In this document: in pieces, positions 2,899 through 36,886 of the stretch | How positions within the stretch are numbered: position 1 is the stretch's first letter | Layout of the letters: each line of letters opens with the position of its first letter | Source: Bacilli bacterium | GTDB lineage: Bacteria > Bacillota_I > Bacilli_A > RF39 > UBA660 | Length of the DNA: 58,824 bases | Direction: 5' to 3' | Assembly: GCA_017511945.1 (NCBI GenBank) | Contig: JAFWHR010000003.1 | Location: 1-58,824 of the forward strand | The notes under the pieces: model-generated | Told to the model about the DNA's origin: nothing | Databases searched by the model: none | What the model saw: the letters and a program-made list of their open reading frames with translations, nothing else | Program-made: the position numbers and the translations under genes

Positions 2899-3441
2899 AT
2901 GGATTATGAGTTAATGATTCCAGATTCTTATCATCCGAGTGTATATGACATTAATTATTCTTTGATTAGAGATAATGGAATTAAATATGCGGTTTTTGAT
3001 GTAGACTGTACTATTTTACCTTTTGATGATATTAATGTAGGTGATGATTTAATAAATCTTTTTGATTATATAAAGTCATTGGGGATTCAAAGTGTGTTAT
3101 GTAGTAGTGGTTCTAAAAAAAGGGTTGAAGTAGTTGGTGAGAAGTTAGATATTAATTACATGTATGGAGCTAGAAAACCATATGTTGGATTTAATAGTTT
3201 AAAAAGTTTGTTTGATGATGATTTTGAGAGAAAAAAATCTGTTTTTATTGGTGATTCACCATTTTTCGATATGTATAATGCTGGCAAGATTAATATGAAT
3301 AAAATTTTAGTTGATATGTTAATTCAAGGCTTTAATTTTAAGACTTATACTAATGAATTTATTAGGGCTGCTCTATTTAAAAGGTTAAGAGTTTACGGTT
3401 TGGAAGAAAAAAAATACTATAGAGGAAGTATAGAGAGATAA
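2899..3441 (+). CDS. YqeG-like HAD IIIA phosphatase
   Basis: FDVDCT motif I, ARKP, FIGD motif. Confidence 0.85.
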   Translation: MDYELMIPDSYHPSVYDINYSLIRDNGIKYAVFDVDCTILPFDDINVGDDLINLFDYIKSLGIQSVLCSSGSKKRVEVVGEKLDINYMYGARKPYVGFNSLKSLFDDDFERKKSVFIGDSPFFDMYNAGKINMNKILVDMLIQGFNFKTYTNEFIRAALFKRLRVYGLEEKKYYRGSIER

Positions 3442-3481
3442 ATCTATACTTTTTTTGATATAATTTATTTAGGTGGTCTTT

Positions 3482-4693
3482 ATGAAAATAATAATGCATA
3501 TAGATGTCAATAATGCTTTTTTATCTTGGAGTGCGATTTATTTATTAAATAATGGGTTTAAATATGATATTAGAAATAGTTATGCGGTTATTGGTGGTGA
3601 TGAGAAAAGTAGAAGGGGTATTGTACTTGCTAAATCTACTCCTGCTAAAAGAAGGGGAGTTGTTACTGGTGAAACTTTATATAGTGCGAGAAAGAAATGC
3701 ATAGGTCTAAAAAGTTATAAACCTAATTACAAGTTTTATAAAAAAATGAGTGATACAATGTTTAAACTTATAAAGGGATATTCACCTGATATAGAGAAGA
3801 TGAGTATTGATGAGTGTTTTTTAGATTACACTCCTGTTAAAAGATTATATGGGGATGAAATAGAGTTTGCTGAAAGAATAAAAAAAGAGATTTATCAAAA
3901 ACTGGGTTTTACTGTAAATGTTGGTATTGGAAATAATAAGTTATGTGCGAAGATGGCATCTGATTTTTCTAAACCTAATAAGGTTCATACTTTATTTTTA
4001 GATGAAGTTTCTAAAAAGATGTGGCCTTTAAAGGTCGGAAAACTTTTTGGAATAGGAAAGCAGACTGAGAAGAAATTAAACACTCTTGGTATTTATTATA
4101 TTAAAGATTTAGCTTGCTTTGATGAAAAAACGTTAAAAAAGTATTTTAAAAGCCAAGCTGCTTATATGATTAAATCTGCTAGGGGATTTGGCAGTGATGA
4201 GGTTATAAGTGAGGAATCTATTAGTAAGGGTATTGGGAATGAGACTACTTTAGATCATAACATTTATAGTAAAGAAGAATTATACCCTTATCTTTTAGGT
4301 CTTTGTGAAAATGTTTGTCTTAGACTTAGAAGAGATGATAGGTATGCTTTTGTGGTTGCGGTTACAATTAAGGATAAGTTTTTTAAGAGAAAAAGTCATC
4401 AAAAAAGGTTAGTTAATGCGACTAATATAACTGAGGAGGTATATAATTTATCTAAAGAGATTTTAAGTGAGATGAATGTAGAAGATGGAGTTAGATTGAT
4501 TGGGGTTAGACTAGATGGACTATCAGATTTTTCATATCATCAGACTAGTTTATTTGAAAATATAAATGATAGGGATAGCATTAATAATTTAGATAAGACG
4601 ATAGATGAGATAAAGGATAGGTTTGGGTTTAAAGTTATCGGTAAAGCGTCTTTAAATAATAGAGAGGTCAGAAATAAATATTTAGATAAATAG
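3482..4693 (+). CDS. dinB: DNA polymerase IV (Y family)
   Basis: HIDVNNAF, SIDECFLD, AKMASDFSKPN, LFGIG. Confidence 0.95.
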   Translation: MKIIMHIDVNNAFLSWSAIYLLNNGFKYDIRNSYAVIGGDEKSRRGIVLAKSTPAKRRGVVTGETLYSARKKCIGLKSYKPNYKFYKKMSDTMFKLIKGYSPDIEKMSIDECFLDYTPVKRLYGDEIEFAERIKKEIYQKLGFTVNVGIGNNKLCAKMASDFSKPNKVHTLFLDEVSKKMWPLKVGKLFGIGKQTEKKLNTLGIYYIKDLACFDEKTLKKYFKSQAAYMIKSARGFGSDEVISEESISKGIGNETTLDHNIYSKEELYPYLLGLCENVCLRLRRDDRYAFVVAVTIKDKFFKRKSHQKRLVNATNITEEVYNLSKEILSEMNVEDGVRLIGVRLDGLSDFSYHQTSLFENINDRDSINNLDKTIDEIKDRFGFKVIGKASLNNREVRNKYLDK

Positions 4694-31819: not shown

Positions 31820-33196
31820 ATGAAGATAGTAAAAGATATTAATCCTAGAATATTTAGAGAATATGATATAAGGGCAGTTTATAAAGAAGATTTAAATGAA
31901 GATGTTGCATATACAATTGGAAGAGCTTTTGGCAGTTATGTAAAGAGGAGGGGAGAAAGTAAAGTTTTAATCGGTCATGATAATAGATCTAGTCATTCTA
32001 CACTGTATCCTGGCTTGATGCAGGGAATACTTGATTCTGGAGTAAATGTACTTTCACTTGGATTAATTACCACACCGATGCATAACTATGCGAAAATGTA
32101 TTTTGATGTTAATGCAGCTGTGATGGTAACTGCAAGTCATAATCCGAAAGAGTATAATGGCTTTAAGTTATCTGTTAAAAAAGATGATTCTCTATTTGGT
32201 GATGAACTTAGAGATTTTAAATCTTTTCTTGATAAATATGATTTTGATCAGGGAATTGGTTGTGTTTATGAAGAAGATATTTTTCCGGCTTATATGCAAC
32301 TTTTAAAAAGGTCGCTTGACTTTGGTGAGAGGAAAGTTAAAGTTGTTGTCGACTGTGGAAATGGAACTGGAAGTGTATTTATAGAAAATATTTTAAAAAT
32401 GTTTAATGTTGAGTATGATTTACTCTACTGTGATAGTGATTCTAGTTTTCCTCATCACACGCCAGATCCTGCTGTTAGAGATAATATGAAAGATTTAGGA
32501 GATAGAGTTAAGAGTTTAGGGTATGATGTAGGTCTTGCAGTTGATGGTGACTGTGACAGGTGCGGAATGGTTTTAGATGATGGAACTTACGTTCCAGCTG
32601 ATATGATTATGCTTCTATTTTACCGTGATATCGCACCTAATATGAGAAATAGAAAAGGTGTGTTTGATGTTAAGTGTTCAAAGTCTTTGATAGATGAACT
32701 TGTACTACTTGGAATTGAACCTGTTATGAATAGAACCGGAGCAGTTTATGCGAGAAAATATGTTTTAGATAATAAATTGGATTTTGGGGGTGAGTATTCT
32801 GGTCATTTGTTTTTTACAGATAGATATTTAGGTTATGATGATGGAATTTATGGAATACTTAGAATTGCTGAATTGCTTTCAAAAAGTGATAGAAAAATAT
32901 CTGAAATGTTTAAAGGTATAAATGAGTACTATTCTACAGATGAGGTTAGTTTAAAAAGAGAAGTAACTGATGATAATAAATTTGAAATTGTAAATGACGT
33001 CATTGATTATGTTAAGGAAAAGGGTTATGAGTATAATTTAATTGATGGTATAAGAGTAACCTTTAAAGATGGCTGGGCACTTGTTAGAGCGAGTAATACA
33101 TCACCAAGTCTTACACTTAGATTTGAGGCGAAGAGCAAGAAGAGACTTAAGGAGATTGAAAGAGAATTTAAAAAAGTGCTTGATAGAGAGAAATAG
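31820..33196 (+). CDS. Phosphomannomutase/phosphoglucomutase
   Basis: FREYDIR, TASHNP, DGDCDR, GEYSGH, RASNT. Confidence 0.95.
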   Translation: MKIVKDINPRIFREYDIRAVYKEDLNEDVAYTIGRAFGSYVKRRGESKVLIGHDNRSSHSTLYPGLMQGILDSGVNVLSLGLITTPMHNYAKMYFDVNAAVMVTASHNPKEYNGFKLSVKKDDSLFGDELRDFKSFLDKYDFDQGIGCVYEEDIFPAYMQLLKRSLDFGERKVKVVVDCGNGTGSVFIENILKMFNVEYDLLYCDSDSSFPHHTPDPAVRDNMKDLGDRVKSLGYDVGLAVDGDCDRCGMVLDDGTYVPADMIMLLFYRDIAPNMRNRKGVFDVKCSKSLIDELVLLGIEPVMNRTGAVYARKYVLDNKLDFGGEYSGHLFFTDRYLGYDDGIYGILRIAELLSKSDRKISEMFKGINEYYSTDEVSLKREVTDDNKFEIVNDVIDYVKEKGYEYNLIDGIRVTFKDGWALVRASNTSPSLTLRFEAKSKKRLKEIEREFKKVLDREK

Positions 33197-33244
33197 TTTT
33201 CTCTCTATTTACTTATGAATATAAATATTATATAATTTATATGA

Positions 33245-33318
33245 GCCGCAATAGTATAATGGTATTACGAAGCAATGGTAATGCTTTAATGTAGGTCCGA
33301 TTCCTACTTGCGGCACCA
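33245..33318 (+). tRNA. tRNA-Thr(GGT), CCA encoded, atypical T-loop
   Basis: Acceptor GCCGCAA/TTGCGGC, anticodon arm AAGCA-ATGGTAA-TGCTT, T arm GTAGG-TCCGATT-CCTAC, ACCA end; TTTACT-N17-TATAAT promoter. Confidence 0.9.
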
Positions 33319-33357
33319 TTTGAAAAAATTGTCGCACTAAGCGATATTTATATGACT

Positions 33358-33385
33358 AAGTCAATCTGATATAATTGACTTTTTT
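33358..33385 (+). terminator. tRNA terminator
   Basis: AAGTCAAT...ATTGACTT plus T-run. Confidence 0.7.
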
Positions 33386-33398
33386 AATATAATAAATA

Positions 33399-33478
33399 TT
33401 GTTATTAATCTAAAAATATGGTAAAATCGAATTAGATTTAAGCAGTATTAGAATCTATAATTTTAATACTGTTTTTTT
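33399..33478 (+). promoter_or_regulatory. SigA-like promoter followed by a terminator-like leader hairpin
   Basis: TTGTTA-N17-TAAAAT with TG extension; GCAGTATTAGAA...TTTTAATACTGT plus T-run just before AAGGAG. Confidence 0.55.
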
Positions 33479-33487
33479 AGAAGGAGT

Positions 33488-34069
33488 ATGTTGTTAATGA
33501 AAAGAAAAATATTCTTAAGTTTTAGACCTGAATTTTTTAGACCTATTTTATATGATATAAAAAAATATGAATATCGAAAACGTTTTTGTAAAGAACCAAC
33601 AACTGCATATTTATATTTAAGTGCACCTGTGCAAGAAGTAATTGGAATTATGGAACTGGGGCAACCTTTATATATAAATGAAGAGATACTTAAATATAAT
33701 GAAAGTACTGACGTATATAAAAGACTTAAACAAAATTTGAAGAATGGAGAATTGTTTGCTATTCCGATTGAAAGTTTAAAATTATATAAAAAACCAATTC
33801 CGATTTCTAAAATAAAAGAATTGGAACCAAGTTTTTCAGTGCCACAGTGCTATTTAAATATTGAAAATTATCCAAAAGTATTTAACTATCTTAATAGTAG
33901 AGAAATGTATGATAGAGAATTCTATAATGATCATAAAAAGGTATATGAAAATAATCTTGGTATGAGTTGTAAGGAAATGGAGACCACGTTAGAATTTATC
34001 AAAAAAGATAAAGAATACTTAACGGATAAAAAATATGATATTATTAAAAGTGGTTATTTAAATAAGTAA
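33488..34069 (+). CDS. ASCH/PUA-like domain protein with C-terminal extension
   Basis: LSFRPEFFRPILYDIKKYEYRKR..AYLYLSAPVQEVIG..PQCY, typical ASCH pattern (GxKxxExR with G replaced by D). Confidence 0.8.
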   Translation: MLLMKRKIFLSFRPEFFRPILYDIKKYEYRKRFCKEPTTAYLYLSAPVQEVIGIMELGQPLYINEEILKYNESTDVYKRLKQNLKNGELFAIPIESLKLYKKPIPISKIKELEPSFSVPQCYLNIENYPKVFNYLNSREMYDREFYNDHKKVYENNLGMSCKEMETTLEFIKKDKEYLTDKKYDIIKSGYLNK

Positions 34070-34075
34070 GGAGGT

Positions 34076-35182
34076 ATGTTTGTGAAAAACGTATATTATC
34101 CATTAGCAGGAATGAATTATATAATTAATGATTTAGCCCAAATAATAGAAAACAAAATGAACGATAAAAAGGAAATTGTGTTATGGTTATCAGCTCAAGT
34201 AAATTGTTATCCCCATATAGGGACATTAACTAACTTTATTTCTGCATTTGCTTTAGCAAAACACTTCAAGGAATATTTTAATGTCCCTGTTAAAATAAAA
34301 GTTGAATTATTAGAAAGTGTAACTGGTGAAGAGCAAATAATAAATGGTCATAAATATTACAAAAATTTAGATAATGTTTTAACTGAAGATGGAATAAGTA
34401 TTAAAGAAAAATATTTACCTTATTTTAAAGATATTTTAAATAGATTGAGTGAAAAAGATAAAATTGATTATGAAATAAGATTCTTTTATGATTATCAAAA
34501 AGATCCATTAGTAAAGCAATCCTTAATAGAGGTTATGAATAACTATGAACTATTAAAATATACATTAGATCCTAAGGATGGGCAAATAAGATTAAGGTTT
34601 CCATGTCCAAAATGTGGACTTACGGAAAAACATTTGTTAAATACAAAAATAGAAGATATTTCTAATGAACATATTAAAATGAAATCAATTTGTCCGTACC
34701 ATGGAGAATATAGCATTAATATTGATAAGAATAGTACAGATTTGTTTGATATGAATGTGCCATTAAGATACTTAGTAAAAATATTATACTTATTAAAAAA
34801 AGATAAGGAAGAAAATTCATTAAACGTAATTGTTGATGGTGGTGATTGGTCTGGAATTTGGCCTCTTAGAGTGTATATGGAACCATTATTAAAATTAAAA
34901 CATTCTGATGTTCCTAGTATTATATATACACCAACTATATTAGATTGGTCTGGAAGTAAATTATCTAAAAGAATGTATGTAGGCAATCAAGCTTATAGAG
35001 AATACTTAAAAGAGGGGTTAATTAATTATTCCGAGTTTTATAATCAATATGGTGAAGTTGGATTTCAAAGATTATACAATGAAATTAATAATTGGATATT
35101 AGAACCAAAAAAATTTATTAGAGATTATACAATTGAGTACATGGATGCCATACTGAATGATGAAAAAATAAATATTTTATAG
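34076..35182 (+). CDS. Class I aminoacyl-tRNA synthetase-like protein (LysRS-I-like catalytic domain only)
   Basis: PHIGT (HIGH), CPKCG...CPYHG Zn ribbon, GxD, DWSGSKLSKR (KMSKS); 368 aa with no room for an anticodon domain. Confidence 0.75.
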   Translation: MFVKNVYYPLAGMNYIINDLAQIIENKMNDKKEIVLWLSAQVNCYPHIGTLTNFISAFALAKHFKEYFNVPVKIKVELLESVTGEEQIINGHKYYKNLDNVLTEDGISIKEKYLPYFKDILNRLSEKDKIDYEIRFFYDYQKDPLVKQSLIEVMNNYELLKYTLDPKDGQIRLRFPCPKCGLTEKHLLNTKIEDISNEHIKMKSICPYHGEYSINIDKNSTDLFDMNVPLRYLVKILYLLKKDKEENSLNVIVDGGDWSGIWPLRVYMEPLLKLKHSDVPSIIYTPTILDWSGSKLSKRMYVGNQAYREYLKEGLINYSEFYNQYGEVGFQRLYNEINNWILEPKKFIRDYTIEYMDAILNDEKINIL

Positions 35183-35252
35183 GAGTACATATAAAATTTA
35201 TTGTATTAATCAAAATATTATTTATTGCAGTAAAATTATGTTATAATTTAAT

Positions 35253-35396
35253 CAGTTAGTAATTATTACTAAAACTATTTGTGTCATAAAAGTTGTCGTA
35301 CTTCATCTTTTATGACACCATAATGGATAGAAATTCGGAAACATTTTCCGAATAATAATAAAGGTATAGTTAAAATTAAAACTATATTTTTTTTGC
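35253..35396 (+). ncRNA. Putative structured small RNA (four hairpins)
   Basis: TGnTATAAT at 35239-35247; hairpins TTAGTAAT/ATTACTAA, GTGTCATAAAAG/CTTTTATGACAC, ATTCGGAAA/TTTCCGAAT, TATAGTT/AACTATA plus T-run. Confidence 0.35.
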
Positions 35397-35500
35397 CATA
35401 CTAAATTTAAGATTTTTGTTAAAATAGGATTACTACTTTATTTTGTAACCTTTTATGTATTTTTTTGTTTGTGATGTAAATACTAAATTTGGTGATTTAT

Positions 35501-36886
35501 TTGAAAAGAGTTAGTATATGGAAAGATGGTAATTATAAAAAATTTTCAAAATTAGATGAGGATAAAGATGTAGATTTACTCATTATAGGTGGTGGAATAA
35601 CTGGTTCGAGCTTACTTTATCATTTAAAAAAATCTAATTTAAAAGTTTTACTTGCTGAACAAAATAGAGTAGGTTATTCAGTAACTGGTAGTTCAACAGG
35701 AAAATTAAACTTTTTACAAAATGATTTAATAGATAGTATAAGAAATAATTATAATGATGAAGTGGCTAGGTTATATTTGAAATCTCAGATGGATTCTATT
35801 AGAAAGATAGTTGAGGTGATTAATAAAGATAATATAGACTGCGACATAAAAAAAGTAAATAGTTATTTATATACTAATAAGGATAATGAGATAGATAAGA
35901 TAAAAGAGGTTAAAAAGTTTTTAAGTGAAAGCGGTATAGAAGTTTTTGATGGTAAAAGTGATTTAGTTAAAAGTAAATATATGATATATGTAGAAGGTAC
36001 TTATGTTTTTCACCCTATTAAGTTTATTCACGGCCTTATAGATGATTGTGATAATGTATACGAAAAAACAAGTATAAAAAAAATAGAAAAAAGGGGAGAA
36101 AAGTACATTTGTCATACAGGTCGTAATGTTATTAAAACTAAATATGTTGCAGTATGTAGTCATTATCCTTTTTTTAACATTCCATTTTTATTTCCCATTA
36201 AAGGCAGTTTGGAAAAATCTTATTTGAGCGCATGTAAAAGTAGAGTTAATCCCATTTCTTTAATAAGTTATTCTAAACCGTTTATATCTATTAGAACTCA
36301 TAAGAATTATCTGATATATTTAAGTAATTCTGACAGTTTAAATAAATGTACAGATGATAAGAAAAATTTTGGTGAACTATGTAAAAAGGTATCTGATTTA
36401 AATATTAATCCTGATTACCTTTGGAGTAACATAGATATAATGACTAACGACTGTCTTCCTTATATTGGAAAAATTAAAGATAATATGTTTATTGCGACAG
36501 GTTATAATACGTGGGGTCTTACTAATGGATTTTCGGCTGGAAGTATCATAAGTGATATACTTATGAACAGAGATAATGAATACGTTAAACTATTTAATCC
36601 TAAGAGGGTAAATGCTATTAAATATTTAAAAACTATAACTGATATTTATGAAAATATAAGTGGTTATGTTAAGGGATTTAATAGTTCTAATAAATCTATT
36701 AAAAAGTCTAAAGATGGTAAAAGCACCTTAAAGGTGCATGGTAGTAGTTTATCAAATAAGTGTCCGCATATGGGATGCGGTTTAATTTATAATTGTATAG
36801 AAAAAACTTTTGACTGTCCTTGTCATGGGTCAAGATTTGACATAAAGGGAAGATGTTTAAGTGGGCCTGCTAATAATGATATTTAG
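35501..36886 (+). CDS. YhfW-like FAD-dependent oxidoreductase with C-terminal Rieske domain
   Basis: IIGGGITG, TGYNTWG, CPHMGC...CPCHGSRF. Confidence 0.9.
   Translation: MKRVSIWKDGNYKKFSKLDEDKDVDLLIIGGGITGSSLLYHLKKSNLKVLLAEQNRVGYSVTGSSTGKLNFLQNDLIDSIRNNYNDEVARLYLKSQMDSIRKIVEVINKDNIDCDIKKVNSYLYTNKDNEIDKIKEVKKFLSESGIEVFDGKSDLVKSKYMIYVEGTYVFHPIKFIHGLIDDCDNVYEKTSIKKIEKRGEKYICHTGRNVIKTKYVAVCSHYPFFNIPFLFPIKGSLEKSYLSACKSRVNPISLISYSKPFISIRTHKNYLIYLSNSDSLNKCTDDKKNFGELCKKVSDLNINPDYLWSNIDIMTNDCLPYIGKIKDNMFIATGYNTWGLTNGFSAGSIISDILMNRDNEYVKLFNPKRVNAIKYLKTITDIYENISGYVKGFNSSNKSIKKSKDGKSTLKVHGSSLSNKCPHMGCGLIYNCIEKTFDCPCHGSRFDIKGRCLSGPANNDI

Follow-up and report, generated by a model that had tools for sequence, protein, structure and literature searches.

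The window analysed here, a stretch of 58,824 nucleotides from the assembly of a Bacilli bacterium of the gut (GCA_017511945.1, contig JAFWHR010000003.1, positions 1 to 58,824 of the forward strand), contains two neighbouring open reading frames (ORFs) that follow a tRNA-Thr gene. The first one, ORF A (33497..34069), encodes a protein with an ASCH fold; the second one, ORF B (34082..35182), belongs to a new family of ligases built on the catalytic core of an aminoacyl-tRNA synthetase (aaRS), for which neither Pfam nor NCBIfam has a model. The pairing of both genes is real and old, B is functionally tied to ASCH proteins, and the pair is an accessory, mobile and patchily distributed unit that rides on integrative or mobilisable elements. 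Both ORFs are on the + strand and each is preceded by a GGAG-type Shine-Dalgarno sequence, as read from the DNA. Their coordinates depend on the start codons that are favored. The original prediction of two genes 6 nt apart directly after tRNA-Thr holds when the ATG codons at 33488 (A, 193 aa) and 34076 (B, 368 aa) are used. The ATG at 33497 (A, 190 aa) and the GTG at 34082 (B, 366 aa) are the likelier starts because of their Shine-Dalgarno spacing, because the closest homologues have 190 and 366 aa and because the Atlas has A from residue 4. Residues are numbered here according to the longer, 193-aa and 368-aa, readings.

B had been proposed to be a truncated class I aaRS paralogue with HIGT, KLSKR and CxxC/CxxH motifs, and these are present and conserved across its homologues. 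In an alignment of 22 of them, P46, H47, G49 and T50 from the HIGH-type signature (P46-H-I-G-T50, 34211..34225, + strand, from sequence reading and the homologue alignment) are nearly invariant (at least 90%). The alignment is strictly invariant at K295, S297 and K298 of the KMSKS-type loop (K295-L-S-K-R299, 34958..34972, + strand, located by the same means), at the four residues C177, C180, C206 and H209 of a CxxC...CxxH zinc-ribbon insertion (34604..34702, + strand) and at G255, D257 and W258. With a cut-off of E<=1e-3, an exhaustive profile search retrieved 457 representative clusters, of which 151 reach E<=1e-30, most with lengths of 350-370 aa. Among the full-length representatives, HxG is kept in 83/84, KxSK in 77/84 and CxxC...CxxH in 72/84. 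Since full length and intact motifs are maintained across the representative clusters, the family is not a decaying fragment, and its sequences look like those of active enzymes rather than debris.

The AlphaFold model of B (pLDDT 88, pTM 0.88) has 164 Foldseek matches at E<=0.001 and, among the matches listed (ranks to 50), all are class I aaRS or aaRS-like chains except BshC (4wbd). The best match is the class I lysyl-tRNA synthetase (LysRS) 1irx (E 1.5e-9, query TM 0.53, 308 aligned columns, 11-12% identity), followed by chains of the glutamyl- (GluRS), methionyl- (MetRS) and cysteinyl-tRNA synthetases (CysRS). A sequence profile search against the PDB aligned only the 'P.IL...G.KLSKR' loop of B, to the 'G.KLSKR' loop of GluRS, and the PHROGs profile phrog_35625, annotated as 'tRNA synthetase', matches B over its full length (E 1e-27). 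Motifs and fold matches together therefore indicate that B is a class I catalytic core of the GluRS/LysRS-I type that has diverged very far. The model has few helices after the KLSKR loop and the chain is shorter (366-368 aa) than the best-matching synthetases (380-573 aa), so we read it as leaving no room for an anticodon-binding domain; the predicted truncation is thus congruent with the model. General domain collections do not recognize the family: B has no Pfam match at E<=1, its three NCBIfam matches at E<=1 are at chance level and include neither an aaRS nor GluQRS, and where 8 longer members extend at the N or C terminus, Pfam has no match either.

The distribution of B and the gene content of its genome (910 kb assembled, 85% complete) are those of an accessory gene. 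A class II LysRS is encoded elsewhere (TIGR00499, 651 bits, above the curated cut-off, G000:C1:18205-19671), which agrees with the supposition that B is not the LysRS of the cell; the class I LysRS model PF01921 leaves B unmatched in the genome scan and finds two other places only, both below cut-off. Similarly, PF00749 matches only the canonical GluRS on contig C20, and a TmcAL is encoded at G000:C14:262-1335 (PF05636, 391 bits). The B family occurs in 10/201 genomes and 9/98 genera of the order. A housekeeping LysRS-I or GluRS is rejected as the identity of B by the missing model matches, the separate LysRS and GluRS genes and this patchiness; membership of the GluQRS or TmcAL family was also rejected, as no matching model was found. 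Rare linkage of the homologues to ASCH genes, a full-length alignment to LysRS-I and dependence of the genome on B had been named in the original prediction as points that would speak against it; all three were looked at and none was found.

That A is an ASCH protein, as had been anticipated, is borne out by its fold, the PDB sequence search, PADLOC and PHROGs, although it has no Pfam match at E<=1, PF04266 (ASCH) included. The phmmer search against PDB sequences retrieved ZmASCH (E 0.012, residues 6-122), PADLOC assigned A to PDC-M11B (E 5.4e-14, residues 7-127) and PHROGs to phrog_3136 (E 8e-16). The structural model (pLDDT 95) matches ZmASCH (5gus, E 7e-8, target TM 0.70) and then the ASCH domains of TTHA0113, TRIP4 and EOLA1. 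The ASCH domain covers approximately residues 6-125 and its octapeptide is of the GKER type (K25-x-x-E28-x-R30): across 25 homologues K25, E28 and R30 never change and D, N or G is found at the G position, so that A is an ASCH-fold protein of this type with the Lys/Glu dyad kept. In GKER-type ASCH proteins, the Lys and Glu of the motif are reported as essential for the removal of N4-acetylcytidine (ac4C) marks from tRNA, and 19/19 ASCH proteins tested removed ac4C from tRNA (2026 preprint, 10.64898/2026.02.27.708502); the YqfB protein of E. coli hydrolyses N4-acylcytosine derivatives (PMC6972931). Some 65 further aa at the C terminus (residues 128-193) are also conserved; no match was found for this extension, in which E144, F145, H149, N156, C161, E165 and D174 are invariant in the 25 homologues.

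The association of B with ASCH genes recurs far beyond this locus. Among the 27 B loci gathered from species-representative genomes, 19 carry an intact B of the type found here (type 1) and A lies directly upstream in 19/19, cut by the contig end in two of them. A second B subtype (~250 bits) has the reverse order, with B followed by an overlapping short ASCH gene (L042-L047); a further 120-aa ORF in L042 and L044 is ASCH-like by eye, without Pfam or PADLOC match, and its relative in L045 has a Pfam ASCH match just under the cut-off (E 5.8e-4). Outside of these genomes, the Streptomyces phages Picard and Mojorita encode a B homologue (24.5% identity, 96% coverage, E 8e-30 for Mojorita gp28) which is followed, with a 4-nt overlap, by a Pfam ASCH protein (gp29 in Mojorita, E 1e-10), and the phage pair adjoins a serine integrase. 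The ASCH identity of gp29 comes from Pfam, as a BLASTP comparison with A gives no pairwise similarity (E 3.2). On the plasmid p19Msa0383-2 of Macrococcoides bohemicum, two ATP-grasp genes precede B and an ASCH-like gene (local hidden Markov model, E 4e-10). Fusions of B and ASCH also exist (P0278 and P0293, with C-terminal Pfam ASCH matches of 1.5e-8 and 4e-7 respectively, and P0249), and on three actinomycete plasmids the annotated ASCH gene is in frame with B and no stop intervenes. The expected linkage to ASCH genes was thus recovered by the neighbourhood survey in both gene orders, across phyla, phages, plasmids and fusions, and it is not a chance adjacency.

The literature search found no description of such a system, in line with the initial statement that none was known: in the limited literature covered, no paper was found that connects an ASCH protein to class I LysRS or to aaRS paralogues, nor one that links aaRS-like proteins to anti-phage function. 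As a lead only, the Atlas contains a 491-aa 'ASCH protein' cluster (246 members, score 0.88). The prediction of an A-B complex returned a score of 0.00 and 'no answer', which counts neither way. On plasmids of Prauserella, Streptomyces and Amycolatopsis (L063, L065, L066), a ~295-aa hypothetical protein and a ~190-200-aa 'ATP-binding protein' are encoded ahead of the B-family ligase and the in-frame ASCH, and this order of four parts is conserved. This ligase is absent from the PLSDB gene table, and the two genes upstream of it may be further components.

Both partners differ in how often they are found broken or alone. B is broken or truncated in 7/27 loci: by an in-frame stop near codon 34 in L013, a stop at 129 in L022, a frameshift at 223/224 in L025 and an internal deletion plus a stop in L026, with fragments in L021, L023 and L027. 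A is intact in the three of these loci where it can be fully read (L013, L025 and L026); L022 shows only its 3' end at the contig edge. A search for A in the same 201 genomes found a match in 29, including full-length copies that lack any B within 1.5 kb: those of type 1 in G079, G049 (contig 1), G187 and G191, and a more diverged one in G056. Conversely, an intact type-1 B without A was found in 0/19 loci. This asymmetry would be expected if B were costly and A protective; the counts are small and come from related metagenome-assembled genomes (MAGs).

Several of the other ASCH genes have contexts of their own. The orphan A of G049 (L069, G049:C1, reverse complement of 1453-2869 and 3128-3565) is followed by a gene whose 249-aa product has a Fic motif (HPFGDGNGRVGR) and by a serine recombinase-like gene, both recognized by eye, and the one in G079 has a Nudix-like gene downstream, also by eye. 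Short ASCH homologues in three genomes of the same order (G144:C20, G158:C3 and G055:C25; L079, L081 and L082) have 1-2 TGA codons in frame but neither of the remaining stop codons; TGA could specify an amino acid in these lineages, or the genes could be broken.

The neighbourhoods of the type-1 pairs are those of mobile elements. L009-L011 encode a large serine recombinase, along with a Mob_Pre relaxase, upstream of the pair, a serine recombinase is found near it in L015 and RhuM in L019, and in L024 the pair stands between an upstream Fic gene and a downstream serine recombinase. In L010 (8689-12712), a restriction-modification (R-M) system is found a short way downstream of it, in which an AlwI-family restriction endonuclease accompanies a D12-class adenine methyltransferase. 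The front of the element, from the recombinase to the pair, is common to L009, L010 and L011, three loci assigned to separate MAG species. Pfam had no match in the 421-aa gene that follows the pair in these three loci.

At the locus of the window, the left edge of the variable islet is the gene of tRNA-Thr, anticodon GGT (33245..33318, + strand), the single tRNA detected in the window by ARAGORN and also matched by Rfam RF00005 (64 bits). A genome from the same genus (G130) keeps the amidase, deacetylase, PGM and tRNA-Thr(GGT) genes and has an ABC transporter after the tRNA instead of the islet, which supports the initial view of a tRNA-adjacent islet here. The adjacency does not generalize, however, as a tRNA lies directly upstream in only 2/25 scanned loci (L013 and L020); for this reason, the link with tRNA-Thr looks like that of an insertion or integration site, with no functional tie. 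No att-like direct repeat of the tRNA 3' end was found flanking the islet, and the 8 short repeat families detected are at chance level. The right edge is near 35321, since the contigs of three metagenome runs end or diverge at 35320-35321. In one metagenome contig (X13, record 9) that spans 33245-35321, 27 letters differ and there are 2 gaps (~98.6% identity). The PGM flank of this contig differs at 19/110, 27/182 and 38/236 positions (~84% identity). The islet is thus much closer to its counterpart than the flank is, and must have moved or recombined recently.

The region around both genes contains few other signals. A terminator-like hairpin 3' of the tRNA (33330..33346, + strand) is the sole such site within 33100-35600 in the consensus scan, as a pattern match only. 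The promoter scan is uninformative, with 24 promoter-like sites found and 22.7 expected. The non-coding stretch 3' of B is about 300 nt long and includes a structured tail (35225..35400, + strand; -42.9 kcal/mol, z -6.07 against shuffles) with three hairpins, one of which has a 15-bp stem (inverted repeat 35281-35295 / 35304-35318); the last one is AT-rich and is followed by a T-run. Separate contigs from two metagenome runs match the sub-segment 35232-35321, where there is also a depth spike, so this sub-segment is present in other contexts too. No repeat of the 35190-35400 element was found elsewhere in its own genome, and Rfam retrieved only the tRNA around the pair, with no T-box, riboswitch or other family, tail included. 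The tail could be the end of an element, a small RNA or a shared terminator. Downstream, positions 35489-36886 encode a 465-aa protein that combines an FAD-dependent oxidoreductase domain (DAO, E 7e-25) with a C-terminal Rieske 2Fe-2S domain (E 4e-10); this gene may also belong to the variable region because it is not found after tRNA-Thr in G130.

More distant relatives of B, at ~30% identity or less and without ASCH, lie beside nucleotide enzymes. In L040 (G026:C75, 218-3329, minus strand), a nucleoside 2-deoxyribosyltransferase (NDT), a 112-aa protein like AdoMet decarboxylase (AdoMet_dc), the B-family ligase and two thymidylate-kinase-like genes follow each other; L041 consists of NDT, B and MazG, and L028 of a helix-turn-helix gene, B, a gene without assignment and MazG. 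The 282-aa and 464-aa genes of L028 have no Pfam match. One relative is a B-AdoMet_dc fusion (P0209), and this fusion and the L040 operon suggest, by their gene content, a nucleotide-modifying pathway. The plasmid pJZ29-01 of Pantoea sp. JZ29 (L064, 3264-7044) encodes an S-adenosylmethionine (SAM) methyltransferase, B, LOG (PF03641), a DMT transporter and a Ham1 nucleoside triphosphate (NTP) pyrophosphatase, an operon that looks like one for the synthesis and export of a modified nucleobase. Together with the precedent of the ASCH amidohydrolases, these neighbours point to a nucleobase or nucleotide amine as the acceptor of B.

Several scenarios may explain the pairing of an aaRS-like ligase and an ASCH protein. 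The one that we favor, tentatively and at somewhat less than an even chance, is that the pair is a mobile conflict module of the writer/eraser type, with a nucleobase, a nucleotide or RNA as its target. B would use ATP to adenylate an amino acid or another carboxylate and would transfer the acyl group to an amine or hydroxyl of a nucleobase, a nucleotide or an RNA such as tRNA; the most economical guess for the acceptor would be an exocyclic amine such as N4 of cytidine. A would bind the same acylated target, hydrolyse the amide and thus keep the product of B in check in the carrier cell. With B writing the acyl mark and A erasing it, the pair would behave as a toxin-antitoxin system, an addiction module or anti-phage cargo, and would be a variant of GevT/ASCH (PDC-M11) with an ATP-dependent aaRS-like ligase in the place of the toxin. 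The writer/eraser interpretation of the original prediction therefore stands only in part. The identities of the paralogue and of the ASCH protein and their recurrent pairing were recovered; the function of the module keeps the tentative standing given above, indirectly supported by the dyad of A, its membership in the GevA clade, the precedent of TmcAL and the asymmetry left by the orphan A genes. More ambitiously, the family could represent an unrecognised class of mobile conflict systems, in which the free-standing aaRS core would use ATP to aminoacylate or acylate an exocyclic base amine in tRNA, RNA or the nucleotide pool and poison translation or replication, either in the cell or in an invading phage, the ASCH amidohydrolase would be the antitoxin or immunity protein, and the relatives beside LOG, NDT, MazG, kinases and AdoMetDC would build aminoacyl-nucleobase metabolites. 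This broader proposal is doubtful.

A number of observations weigh against the conflict scenario. Neither an activity or substrate nor a toxic or phage-related phenotype has been described for a member of the family, B matches no PADLOC model at E<=1, and no recombinase or defence gene flanks the pair in the window. The broken B genes come from MAGs, where they can be assembly errors, and the 'antitoxin' label of GevA is a GenBank annotation only, with no paper found behind it in the literature covered. ZmASCH, the closest solved ASCH structure to A, is reported as a single-stranded RNA ribonuclease inactive on the free ac4C nucleoside (10.64898/2026.02.27.708502), so erasing is not the sole possible activity of A. 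The fused B-ASCH proteins are more easily understood as one enzyme that carries a domain for targeting or editing than as two antagonists, and in part of the family the neighbours, ATP-grasp and an MFS transporter or LOG, Ham1 and the DMT exporter, point to the biosynthesis of small molecules.

These last two points lead to the main competing scenarios. If B and its relatives made an acyl- or aminoacyl-nucleoside or nucleobase metabolite (an antimetabolite or a signal) by ligating an acid to a nucleotide, ASCH would be a hydrolase for self-resistance or maturation. The Macrococcoides plasmid, where two ATP-grasp genes, B and the ASCH-like gene are near an MFS transporter, would suit such a pathway, as would the Pantoea operon with its methyltransferase, LOG, DMT exporter and Ham1, the nucleotide-enzyme contexts of L040, L041 and L028 and the B-AdoMet_dc fusion. 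Yet the type-1 module is limited to two genes, none of its 19 loci has a transporter, kinase or glycosidase beside the pair, and its neighbours are recombinases, R-M and Fic genes. Since the nucleotide-enzyme contexts belong to relatives with ~30% identity or less, which may put the same chemistry to a different use, we consider the metabolite scenario rather unlikely for the pair studied here. Alternatively, both proteins could be the two subunits, sometimes fused, of a benign RNA-modification enzyme, with ASCH as the targeting module that replaces the anticodon domain and B aminoacylating a particular tRNA or rRNA at a modified base or ribose. The B-ASCH fusions and in-frame pairs, the alignment of the KLSKR loop to that of GluRS and the tRNA gene adjoining the islet are all compatible with this idea, which nevertheless appears unlikely: A persists without B in 5 genomes with its catalytic dyad kept, the module is found in 10/201 genomes, often broken and on mobile elements, the adjacency to tRNA is limited to 2/25 scanned loci, and B has no meaningful match at E<=1 among the NCBIfam models, that of GluQRS among them.

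Another scenario is the hypermodification of DNA bases in phages and mobile elements, with B appending an amino acid to a DNA base as a protection from restriction and ASCH reading or trimming the mark. It would account for the presence of the pair in a temperate Streptomyces phage and beside the R-M system of L010, and for the deoxynucleoside monophosphate kinase, NDT and MazG genes beside the relatives; the fold matches of A also include complexes of the TRIP4 ASCH domain with double-stranded DNA. The phage pair is, however, next to the integrase and outside the replication module, host genomes carry the pair without phage genes nearby, and neither Pfam nor NCBIfam matched any DNA-modification enzyme family, which makes this scenario improbable. 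It is scarcely credible, finally, that B could be a normal class I LysRS or GluRS with a housekeeping role, or a defunct piece of such an enzyme, as its top fold match (1irx) and the truncated PF01921 clusters nearby in the Atlas might suggest. This is already contradicted by the absence of any aaRS model match, the short chain, the canonical LysRS and GluRS of the genome, the presence in 10/201 genomes and the full length and intact motifs kept in a family of 457 clusters.

New chemistry came to light with each of GluQRS and MshC, two aaRS paralogues that lack an anticodon domain, and with the aaRS-like TmcAL. Should a nucleobase receive an acyl or aminoacyl mark from B and lose it to ASCH, the pair would amount to a new reversible modification of nucleic acids or nucleotides and to a new toxin or defence mechanism. 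The coupling also bears on the roles of ASCH proteins in bacteria beyond ac4C turnover and on the target of the ASCH 'antitoxin' in systems of the GevT/PDC-M11 type, and it concerns a family that phage databases label only as 'tRNA synthetase'. Carriers in culture exist: the Macrococcoides bohemicum plasmid p19Msa0383-2, the Streptomyces phages Picard and Mojorita and the actinomycete plasmids.

The comparison with known systems places the pair close to several of them without making it a member of any. GluQRS (YadB, glutamyl-queuosine tRNA-Asp synthetase) is a class I core of the GluRS type with no anticodon domain, a zinc site in an insertion and a KLSK-type loop, and it attaches its activated amino acid to a modified base (the queuosine of tRNA-Asp) instead of the 3' end of a tRNA. 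B resembles it in the kind of core, the missing anticodon domain, the zinc site and the loop, which aligns to that of GluRS; it differs in having no NCBIfam or Pfam match at E<=1, a fold nearest to LysRS-I, its coupling to ASCH and its patchy, mobile distribution. Class I LysRS (1irx, PF01921) is the top fold match of B and the Atlas puts truncated PF01921 clusters nearby, but the identity is only 11-12%, PF01921 misses B, B lacks the anticodon domain and the genome uses a class II LysRS. TmcAL (tRNA-Met cytidine acetate ligase) has a class I aaRS-like fold and uses ATP, and is a model for an aaRS-like writer of acylated cytidine countered by an ASCH eraser. The preprint cited above states that it makes ac4C from acetate and terms it an aminoacyl-tRNA synthetase (10.64898/2026.02.27.708502). 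Nevertheless, PF05636 misses B, the genome has its own TmcAL, and TmcAL is a conserved housekeeping protein whereas B is accessory. As for A, it shares the beta-barrel fold and the GxKxxExR motif, Lys and Glu included, with the ASCH amidohydrolases (YqfB, TthASCH, EOLA1 and TRIP4-ASCH) and with ZmASCH, and departs from them by its additional conserved C-terminal part of ~65 aa and by escaping the Pfam ASCH model.

The closest analogue of the whole module is PDC-M11. In the record of the Escherichia coli lambdoid phage PhiR47_2, two genes between cI and kil are labelled 'GevT toxin' and 'GevA antitoxin'; PADLOC recognizes their products as PDC-M11A (E 2e-133) and PDC-M11B (E 7e-52) respectively. 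GevA is a Pfam ASCH protein 32.5% identical to A (tblastn), and the ASCH partner of the second B subtype also matches PDC-M11B (E 8e-17). Pfam found no domain in GevT. According to Bell et al. (2020, PMC7641849), (PIN-)GNAT-EVE operons almost always encode an ASCH protein and a toxin-antitoxin function is predicted for them, from which, together with its name, we would guess that GevT is a GNAT-EVE protein. In the limited literature covered, no paper was found on GevT/GevA, on GNAT-EVE with ASCH after 2020 or on PDC-M11 beyond listings, and PhiR47 had a single, unrelated mention. B is unrelated to GevT (BLASTP E 0.14) and has no PADLOC match; lacking a PDC-M11A component, the locus is therefore not a PDC-M11 system. 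What both systems share is an ASCH protein from the same clade and the organization of a two-gene module, carried by a temperate phage or mobile element, with a larger enzyme presumed to transfer acyl groups. Judging from these sequences, the module described here looks like the same kind of pair as GevT/GevA with a different large enzyme.

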